Below, piece by piece: positions 34,261 to 36,591 of a stretch of 64,000 nt of DNA. Made by a program: the position numbers and the translations under genes. The stretch is taken from contig JBAZFB010000002.1 in NCBI GenBank assembly GCA_041653595.1, forward strand, positions 68,579 to 132,578. The letters run 5' to 3'. The DNA comes from Candidatus Omnitrophota bacterium (lineage in GTDB: Bacteria > Omnitrophota > Gorgyraeia > Pluralincolimonadales > Pluralincolimonadaceae). Under the pieces are notes generated by a model that worked only from the letters and a program-made list of their open reading frames with translations, was not told the origin of the DNA and did no database searches. Each line of letters opens with the position of its first letter. Within the stretch, counting starts at the first letter, position 1.

Positions 34261-36591
34261 ATGAACATAGCCGAACTTAAAGACCTAACCCAGTCATTTC
34301 TTAAAACTCACGGTTACAATTTTAAAATAACTGGAATCGAAAATTCTATTCTTTTTTCACGACCTACGGGTATGGGAGTTAGTGATGAGATATTAATATA
34401 TTTTCATACGAAGGGCGACGAAGGATATATTGACTCAAGGCTGGGAGATTTAAATGCAAAATATAAGGGAATTTCCGGAGGAGAGTCAGGAAGAAAGTTT
34501 TTTCTCTCCCTAACCTCATTAGCAGGCGACGTTCTTGAAGAAGTAAAGAAACATAGTTTTAAATATCAGGTTCCAGTTTGGTTTTTTGATAGAGAGTTTT
34601 CTGTTGATAAGAAAACAACTCCTTTAAAACAATTGGAAGAACGGGCAAGGGAATATGAAACAGAAAGGATAGGCCAGCCGTACAAAATAGGTACTGTGAT
34701 CAAGAAGAATGATTTATTAATGGATCTTTTAGATGAAATTGAGGAATCAGAAAATCCCTGCTTAAGAATAATAATTGCTCCAGCCGGCTATGGGAAAACC
34801 GTATTGATGGAAACATTATATACAAAAATGAATGAGAAATTCATTAAGGATAAGCAGGAGCAGGTGATAAGCAGAAGACCTTTGCTCATGTTGCCTGGGC
34901 ATATAAGACAAGCCAAAGATTTGGACAGTCTAATCAATAATTTTATCGGTGAAGAGTATGAATATGGAGTTATTAATGAAAATACTTTCAAATTCATGGT
35001 AAAAAATAATCTTGCGATCTGGTTACTCGATGGTTTAGAAGAATTAATTTTAAGAATACCTGAAGAGCTCATTTTTGCGTTACTCGAAGATTACATAGTA
35101 TCTGGAGATGCAAAGGCCCCTCAAATTGTTATTGCTATCCGTAAGCCTGTTCTTAGTACTTTGCCAGAACTAAAAGAATATTTACAAGATTATGATAAAT
35201 GGATAAAAATTTATGAATTGAGTGAATGGGGGAAAGAGGAGAAAATAGCATATTTTGAAAAAAATCTAACTATAAGTAAAGATGAAATAGATAATTTCAA
35301 GAAGGATCTCACCAAATCAGGCCCTTTAAATGAAATTTGTAACGTACCGTATTATTGTAGTTTAATTGCTGATTTAAAAAATAACCACGAAATGCAAATT
35401 TTTTATGACGAATGTGAACTAGTTAAATATGCAACTGAAAAATTATGTGAGAGGGAATTTAGTAAGGACCTTGATAAAGATATTTTCCCCGTGAAGAAAC
35501 AGCTGGAATTTTTCAAAGAGCTCGCAGAAGAAAGTTTTATAAATGGGAAGATTCTAAAAGATATTTTGATAGAATATGCCGAAATTGAATTATCAGGTGT
35601 TCAGGAAACTGTGAAGACGAATCAGATTAGTTGTTTGCAAAGGCATGCTCTTTTAACCCAGGTGGGGGAAGATTTTGACATTATGCATGATATCGTTAGA
35701 GATTATTTGTTGGGACTGGAGTTTTCAGAACATTTGGAAAAATGTAATGTTAAGATCTTTGACATCAAAGAAATCGAAGACGATTCTTTTATTTTACGTT
35801 GCTTGATTAAGAATTCTCAAGTTATAGGTTTTAATTGGGAGAAGATTAAGGCTGAAATTTTAACATTTCATTCCTCTCCGGGCGACTCTGCATATGGATT
35901 CCGCAACGTTTTAAAATTTATTCTATACATTGATCCACAGAATGCTCAGAAAATAATTAAAGATATGTTATCCAATAGAAATCTTACTGGATTAACTTTT
36001 AAAAATATTGATATGCGTGGCTTTGAATTCCAGTTCTCTAAACTAGATTCGACCAGATTTGAGGGCTGTAATTTAGAGAATGCTAATTTTAGTCGCTGTT
36101 ATTTTAGAAATGCGTTTTTTAGTTCAAAATGTGTTCTTACGGGAGCATTAATTAAAGGGGCCATTCTAGATTCTATAGTTGATGAGAAAAAGGAACGTTT
36201 TGATTTAAAAGAAATTCGTGAATATCTTTACGAAAGAACAAAAGTTATTCCTGAGAGTAAAGAACCTTGTCAAGCAGTAATAAATCTTAAAAGAGTTTTA
36301 GAAAAACTTGCTAGAAAAGACAGAGAGTTTAAATTACCTAAAAAATTTCTAATTCAGACAAAATGTAGCGGAGGAATTAGTGCGAGTAGATGTGTAGAAA
36401 CTGCAGTAAAATATGGAGTTTTAGCAGATGATGGAATTCGCATAAAGATTAAAAGCAGTTTATTTGACGAGGTTAATGATTTTGTATTGAATCCTAAGTC
36501 AAAAGAAATACATGCTTCTTTGCACAAAATTTTAGACGATATTTGTCTTGAGGTAAAAACAGGATGTAAACATATTTATTTGGAACAATAG
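34261..36591 (+). CDS. STAND/NACHT-like P-loop NTPase with N-terminal unknown domain and C-terminal pentapeptide repeats (candidate antiphage sensor)
   Basis: Walker A 'APAGYGKTVLMETL', Walker B 'AIWLLDGLEEL'. About 12 pentapeptide repeats 'NLTGLTFKNIDMRGFEFQFSKLDSTRFEGCNLENANFSRCYFRNAFF'. GC content far below the flanks. Confidence 0.65.
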   Translation: MNIAELKDLTQSFLKTHGYNFKITGIENSILFSRPTGMGVSDEILIYFHTKGDEGYIDSRLGDLNAKYKGISGGESGRKFFLSLTSLAGDVLEEVKKHSFKYQVPVWFFDREFSVDKKTTPLKQLEERAREYETERIGQPYKIGTVIKKNDLLMDLLDEIEESENPCLRIIIAPAGYGKTVLMETLYTKMNEKFIKDKQEQVISRRPLLMLPGHIRQAKDLDSLINNFIGEEYEYGVINENTFKFMVKNNLAIWLLDGLEELILRIPEELIFALLEDYIVSGDAKAPQIVIAIRKPVLSTLPELKEYLQDYDKWIKIYELSEWGKEEKIAYFEKNLTISKDEIDNFKKDLTKSGPLNEICNVPYYCSLIADLKNNHEMQIFYDECELVKYATEKLCEREFSKDLDKDIFPVKKQLEFFKELAEESFINGKILKDILIEYAEIELSGVQETVKTNQISCLQRHALLTQVGEDFDIMHDIVRDYLLGLEFSEHLEKCNVKIFDIKEIEDDSFILRCLIKNSQVIGFNWEKIKAEILTFHSSPGDSAYGFRNVLKFILYIDPQNAQKIIKDMLSNRNLTGLTFKNIDMRGFEFQFSKLDSTRFEGCNLENANFSRCYFRNAFFSSKCVLTGALIKGAILDSIVDEKKERFDLKEIREYLYERTKVIPESKEPCQAVINLKRVLEKLARKDREFKLPKKFLIQTKCSGGISASRCVETAVKYGVLADDGIRIKIKSSLFDEVNDFVLNPKSKEIHASLHKILDDICLEVKTGCKHIYLEQ

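Follow-up and report, generated by a model that had tools for sequence, protein, structure and literature searches.

The 776-residue protein MFA5338825.1 of a Candidatus Omnitrophota MAG is a NACHT-clade STAND NTPase, that is, a single-polypeptide bacterial protein related to the NLRs. It appears to be an uncharacterised variant of the bacterial NLR-related defence proteins, with a presumed role in defence. The family to which it belongs is rare and horizontally mobile, and its layout is fixed: an iREase-like N-domain, a linker with FFD and R-x-x-Q-P motifs, the NACHT module, a 13-unit β-helix and a C-terminal domain (CTD). An architecture of this general kind has been on record since 2022, and none of the present findings contradicts current ideas.

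Gene and overall architecture

The gene is located in a stretch of 64,000 nucleotides (the window), to which all positions in Table 1 refer. The open reading frame encoding 776 residues and the motifs GYGKT and WLLDGLEEL, on which the initial annotation was built, were confirmed. Its start methionine matches that of 44 full-length homologues (42–60% identity) and is preceded by a Shine-Dalgarno-like sequence. The terminator-like hairpin further upstream sets the CAAX-protease gene apart from the NACHT gene. The public label of the protein, "pentapeptide repeat-containing protein" or YjbI, covers less than 10% of the polypeptide chain, and this annotation is corrected here. Furthermore, the iREase-like N-domain and the CTD, both without Pfam models, are delimited here.

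Table 1. Positions of the gene, its domains and neighbouring elements in the window.
Feature	Positions	Strand	Residues	Remarks
NACHT-pentapeptide protein gene, complete	34261..36591	+	776 aa	GenBank MFA5338825.1, Candidatus Omnitrophota MAG
Terminator-like hairpin and T-run, end of upstream CAAX-protease gene	34111..34153	+
Shine-Dalgarno-like AGGAGG	34250..34255	+		5 nt ahead of the ATG; read from sequence
REase (PD-(D/E)xK)-fold N-domain, iREase-like	34261..34575	+	1-105
Pre-NTPase linker, conserved	34576..34755	+	106-165	motifs (near-)invariant in narrow and wide families
NACHT module (NBD, helical domain 1, winged helix, helical domain 2)	34756..35958	+	166-566
Walker A	34777-34800	+	173-180	inside NACHT module
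Walker B, D-G-L-E-E	35020-35043	+	254-261	inside NACHT module
13 pentapeptide repeats	35980..36174	+	574-638
CTD, Cys3-His	36193..36588	+	645-776	without Pfam match
Low-GC island: NACHT gene and three-gene SecB-like module	34150..38170	.

The NACHT module

The STAND P-loop signature is formed by the Walker A sequence APAGYGKT (GYGKT at 176–180) together with WLLD257 at 254–257, and the AAA+-like core carries the winged-helix extension at its C-terminal side (NBD-HD1-WHD) that characterizes STAND NTPases. Walker A and Walker B are invariant across the wide family as well as among the 44 homologues. Within the Walker B segment WLLDGLEEL (254–262), D257-G258-L259-E260-E261 has its D, G, E and E invariant in the 44 homologues, and the wide-family consensus reads DGLDE. 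This sequence fits the NACHT-clade signature D[GAS]h[DE][DE] quoted by Kibby et al. (10.1101/2022.07.19.500537) and supports the identification of the module as NACHT, in agreement with the STAND/NACHT-like assignment made initially.

The single-chain predicted model is confident (pTM 0.84). Structure comparison yields the highest scores for NLRP3 (24.4) and NOD2 (22.2), followed by the NB-ARC protein NRC2 (15.6), MalT (13.3), Cdc6 (13.2), Avs5 (11.1) and Apaf-1 (11.0), and since the two NLRs score above the other STAND clades, the structure also places the protein in the NACHT clade. The module harbors a sensor-1 candidate, R294, and a winged-helix motif, F474-x-H476-[DE]-I-x-K-x-Y-L, which resembles the NLR motif F-x-H-x-x-x-Q-E-F-L at the level of the sequence motif only. 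Position 476 is occupied by His in 35 of 44 homologues and by Gln in eight, while H462 is invariant. In NLRC4, the winged-helix histidine contacting ADP is H443.

The domain HMM search suggested in the initial annotation succeeded in part. Pentapeptide (PF00805) passes with 25.6 bits against a gathering score of 20.2, whereas NACHT (PF05729) reaches 15.4 bits and stays below its cut-off of 26.7. Pfam NACHT does match 45 of the 61 wider-family members at E≤1 (best E 1.2e-6). Likewise, residues 166–617 align by BLASTP over 491 positions (E 3e-15) with a distant homologue from Kibdelosporangium (L011), which clears the Pfam NACHT cut-off with 29.1 bits.

The N-terminal domain and linker

The region in which the initial annotation had suspected an effector of no obvious identity, and for which it had proposed structure prediction, folds in the prediction as a restriction endonuclease devoid of the catalytic motif. 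The N-domain comprises about 105 residues in the order α-β-β-β-α-β-α-β and directly precedes the NACHT module. A conserved D...(D/E)xK on strands 2 and 3 was not found in the family alignments; N28, Y47 and H49 occupy the places where catalytic residues would be expected, and D42, E43 and K51 are conserved at 50–70%. Among the candidate nuclease positions, P-x-x-F-F-D is the only one conserved in the wide family. The N-domain is therefore iREase-like by its fold, by the missing catalytic motif and by its position immediately N-terminal to NACHT. As it lacks a conserved D...(D/E)xK and parallels the catalogued "NACHT-associated inactive REase" domains, an enzymatic effector role is improbable for it, and no catalytic effector domain could be identified elsewhere in the protein.

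Profile searches relate the N-domain to known NA-iREases when it is combined with the NACHT module. A search with a profile spanning the N-terminus and NACHT brings up proteins that carry Pfam NA-iREase3, NACHT and Pentapeptide as well as others with NA-iREase2 and NACHT, and the hhalign alignment of this profile to a protein of the former kind has 98.5% probability and E 3.9e-15, reaching the C-terminal half of the iREase domain (residues 55–113 versus 223–281). With the N-domain alone, hhalign against NA-iREase2/3 templates, which contain very few sequences, is not significant (E 0.01 and 0.2). Pfam searches with the isolated N-domains of five diverse members returned noise only at E≤10, without a match to NA-iREase (PF22723, PF22739 or related), and NA-iREase models are absent from the 25 commonest of the 66 Pfam families matched in the 61 wide-family members. 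The linker carries the motifs P105-x-x-F108-F109-D110 and, just ahead of the P-loop strand, R136-x-x-Q139-P140; FFD and R-x-x-Q-P are invariant or nearly so in the narrow and wide families.

The pentapeptide block and the C-terminal domain

The dozen or so pentapeptide repeats noted initially are 13 consecutive units at 574–638, corresponding to about three coils of a right-handed quadrilateral β-helix, and PF00805 is matched by all 61 wide-family members. The block is of constant length across the family and ranks second in conservation among the regions, and hence has the appearance of an unchanging structural module, not of a sensor that varies. The initial proposal of a repeat sensor module thus needs revision, the block being short and of constant length, unlike a variable antigen-receptor sensor. 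A conserved, non-diversifying pentapeptide block also runs counter to what would be predicted for a sensor in an arms race. Searches of the protein against PADLOC, NCBIfam and PHROGs gave nothing or weak pentapeptide matches only; an identity as HalA was rejected, because the match at E 0.001 is due to the repeat alone.

The CTD of about 130 residues did not figure in the initial annotation. Its residues C670, C762, C769 and H771 are invariant and form a putative zinc site, and a helix-helix-hairpin stretch within it recalls a winged helix. When the isolated CTDs of five diverse members were searched against Pfam at E≤10, only noise was obtained and no HTH-family match. WD40 or propeller domains were matched neither in this protein nor in the 61 wide-family members, the CTD taking their place. 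It is the part for which no catalogued counterpart was found.

Family distribution and genomic neighbourhood

Relatives were found in MAGs of Syntrophobacteraceae, Chryseobacterium, Nanoarchaeota and Micrarchaeia. This distribution, together with the low-GC island of about 4 kb (GC 0.29–0.39, 0.33 for the island, versus about 0.51 in the flanks), indicates horizontal transfer. The neighbours are chromosomal, namely genes for an autotransporter, the upstream CAAX protease, LexA and a Y-family polymerase. In line with this, an origin from a prophage or from E. coli was rejected, as megablast of positions 33000–38500 against E. coli genomes and phages was empty. Around the island, the search for direct repeats, att sites and an integrase gave short chance-level repeats only. 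Among the matches listed in pattern scans built on the P-loop, few in genomes and metagenomes were family loci, and none in viral contigs was a homologue; the latter is neutral for a defence function and shows no prophage linkage.

At the 10 loci surveyed, out of roughly 150–200 family loci, the homologues are solo genes without a conserved partner gene. As a raw count, known defence or mobile-element genes adjoin the homologue at eight of these loci; they comprise restriction-modification (R-M), Druantia, DISARM-like, HerA and toxin-antitoxin genes, and one locus lies in an integrative conjugative element, while one homologue is located among housekeeping genes. At E≤1e-5, 47 neighbour proteins matched 316 PADLOC families; MTase_II/III, mad8, HerA and DrmD are among these. 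A single member, P0154, departs from the layout without added effector by carrying an N-terminal Ser/Thr kinase in front of the same core, as expected for swappable effectors.

Comparison with known systems

The closest catalogued architecture is clade 11 in Table S1 of Kibby et al. (10.1101/2022.07.19.500537), described there as an effector followed by NA-iREase, NACHT, a short pentapeptide block and a WD40/β-propeller, with NNH5, EAD, HTH, caspase, PNPase, SIR2, calcineurin or TIR in the effector slot. According to the same table, pentapeptide repeats occur throughout NACHT clades 9, 10 and 11 (162 mentions), so the initial view that they are unusual beside NACHT is not upheld, and in clades 10 and 11 a short block of them joins NACHT to the β-propeller. 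Compared by architecture description, the present protein shares with the clade 11 entries an inactive REase-fold domain of about 105–115 residues directly before NACHT, a Walker B of the form D-G-h-D/E-E and, a little way behind NACHT, a short run of pentapeptides. It differs from these entries in that the repeats are followed by the Cys3-His domain of about 130 residues instead of a β-propeller, in the missing additional N-terminal effector or adaptor (except for the kinase fusion P0154), in the distance of the repeats from helical domain 2 (about 8 residues, versus about 50–130 in Table S1 rows), and in an N-domain that is not matched by the Pfam NA-iREase HMMs.

Similar to bNACHT01 and bNACHT25, whose role in defence has been validated by experiment (Kibby et al.; PMC12169576), the protein belongs to the single-gene NACHT-clade proteins of defence islands. 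For the bNACHT01 clade, fusions to typical effector domains are described as absent (Kibby et al.; PMC12169576). An N-terminal REase-fold domain is also found in bNACHT25, but there it is catalytic, D48A rescuing toxicity, whereas the catalytic motif is missing here. For the bNACHTs that were put to experimental test, the Figure S3 legend gives LRR, HEAT, TM or helical domains and no pentapeptide repeats. The animal NLRs NLRP3 and NOD2 show only 11–12% sequence identity and combine an LRR sensor with PYD or CARD, as opposed to the pentapeptide helix, Zn-type domain and REase-like N-domain seen here. The Avs/AVAST proteins follow the same design logic of an effector-position N-domain, a STAND NTPase and a C-terminal sensor. 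Of the Avs/bNACHT-like architecture originally proposed, the NACHT-clade layout holds, but PADLOC-DB 2.0 matched the protein with none of its families, Avs included, at E≤1.

Proposed function and alternative models

The protein, NLR-related and of fixed layout, is probably a sensor switch that works on its own against phages or mobile elements. Its defence function, trigger-sensing region and output are assigned by analogy with the NLRs and the bNACHT proteins. At rest it would be an auto-inhibited, nucleotide-bound monomer, and the confidence of the single-chain model (pTM 0.84) agrees with a compact state of this kind. The C-terminal part, consisting of the pentapeptide helix and the Zn-type CTD, may read an infection cue, upon which the winged helix would be freed, the nucleotide exchanged and the NACHT modules oligomerized. 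The oligomers would cluster the iREase-like N-domains for a non-catalytic output, either DNA binding or recruitment of a host factor, and this clustering may lead to growth arrest or abortive infection. Because a catalytic effector is not identifiable, the output step is speculative.

Alternatively, the N-domain might be a cryptic active nuclease which cuts DNA upon oligomerization, in the manner of bNACHT25 or of those Avs proteins that have Mrr/REase effectors. The REase-like fold is clear; moreover, D110 is invariant, and conservation of E112 and K117 within the narrow family is near 90%. Furthermore, some REase families such as Cfr10I/NgoMIV have their catalytic residues at non-canonical positions, which counts in favour of this alternative. 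Given the missing D...(D/E)xK described above, we nevertheless regard it as unlikely.

Equally, a transcriptional regulator of the MalT/AfsR/GutR type, with ligand-dependent control of transcription through DNA binding by a Zn-stabilised winged-helix-like CTD, is improbable. Such a role is at odds with the patchy cross-phylum distribution, the low-GC island and the lack of conserved neighbouring target genes, with the repeated occurrence of homologues next to the defence and toxin-antitoxin genes named above and within an integrative conjugative element, with a structure that MalT matches far less well than NLRP3 and NOD2 do, and with a CTD without HTH-family Pfam match.

The pentapeptide β-helix also invites comparison with Qnr, MfpA and AlbG, dimeric DNA mimics of about 180–220 residues which act on gyrase. 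Those are stand-alone proteins, whereas the present one is an NTPase of 776 residues that contains just 13 repeats. As a long shot, the protein could be an NLR without an effector, its conserved β-helix serving as DNA-mimic bait, as in Qnr and MfpA, and capturing, together with the Cys3-His domain, a phage DNA-binding protein (polymerase, topoisomerase, terminase or recombinase); immunity would then arise from ATP-driven oligomeric sequestration of that protein or its tethering to DNA by the iREase, with no enzymatic kill switch involved. If true, a bacterial NLR would have an output that needs no enzyme.

Finally, a multi-gene system uniting the NACHT gene with the trio downstream of it (genes for 186 aa, 110 aa and a SecB-like chaperone, resembling toxin-antitoxin-SecB modules) is highly improbable: the four genes share one strand and the same low-GC island, with 130 nt from the NACHT stop to the next start and no terminator-like site predicted there, but the trio adjoins the NACHT gene in none of the 10 homologue loci and is found alone elsewhere, beside SIR2 and HerA or HicA genes, so that the modules are distributed independently and the trio was rejected as a partner.

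Returning to the stand-alone sensor switch, should the family turn out to protect against phage, it would provide a compact NLR-like protein without an enzymatic effector or a large repeat sensor. It would then be a convenient minimal system for studying how a NACHT switch gives an output through an inactive REase-fold domain, and likewise for the role of the short pentapeptide module in NACHT clades 9–11, their eukaryotic members included.

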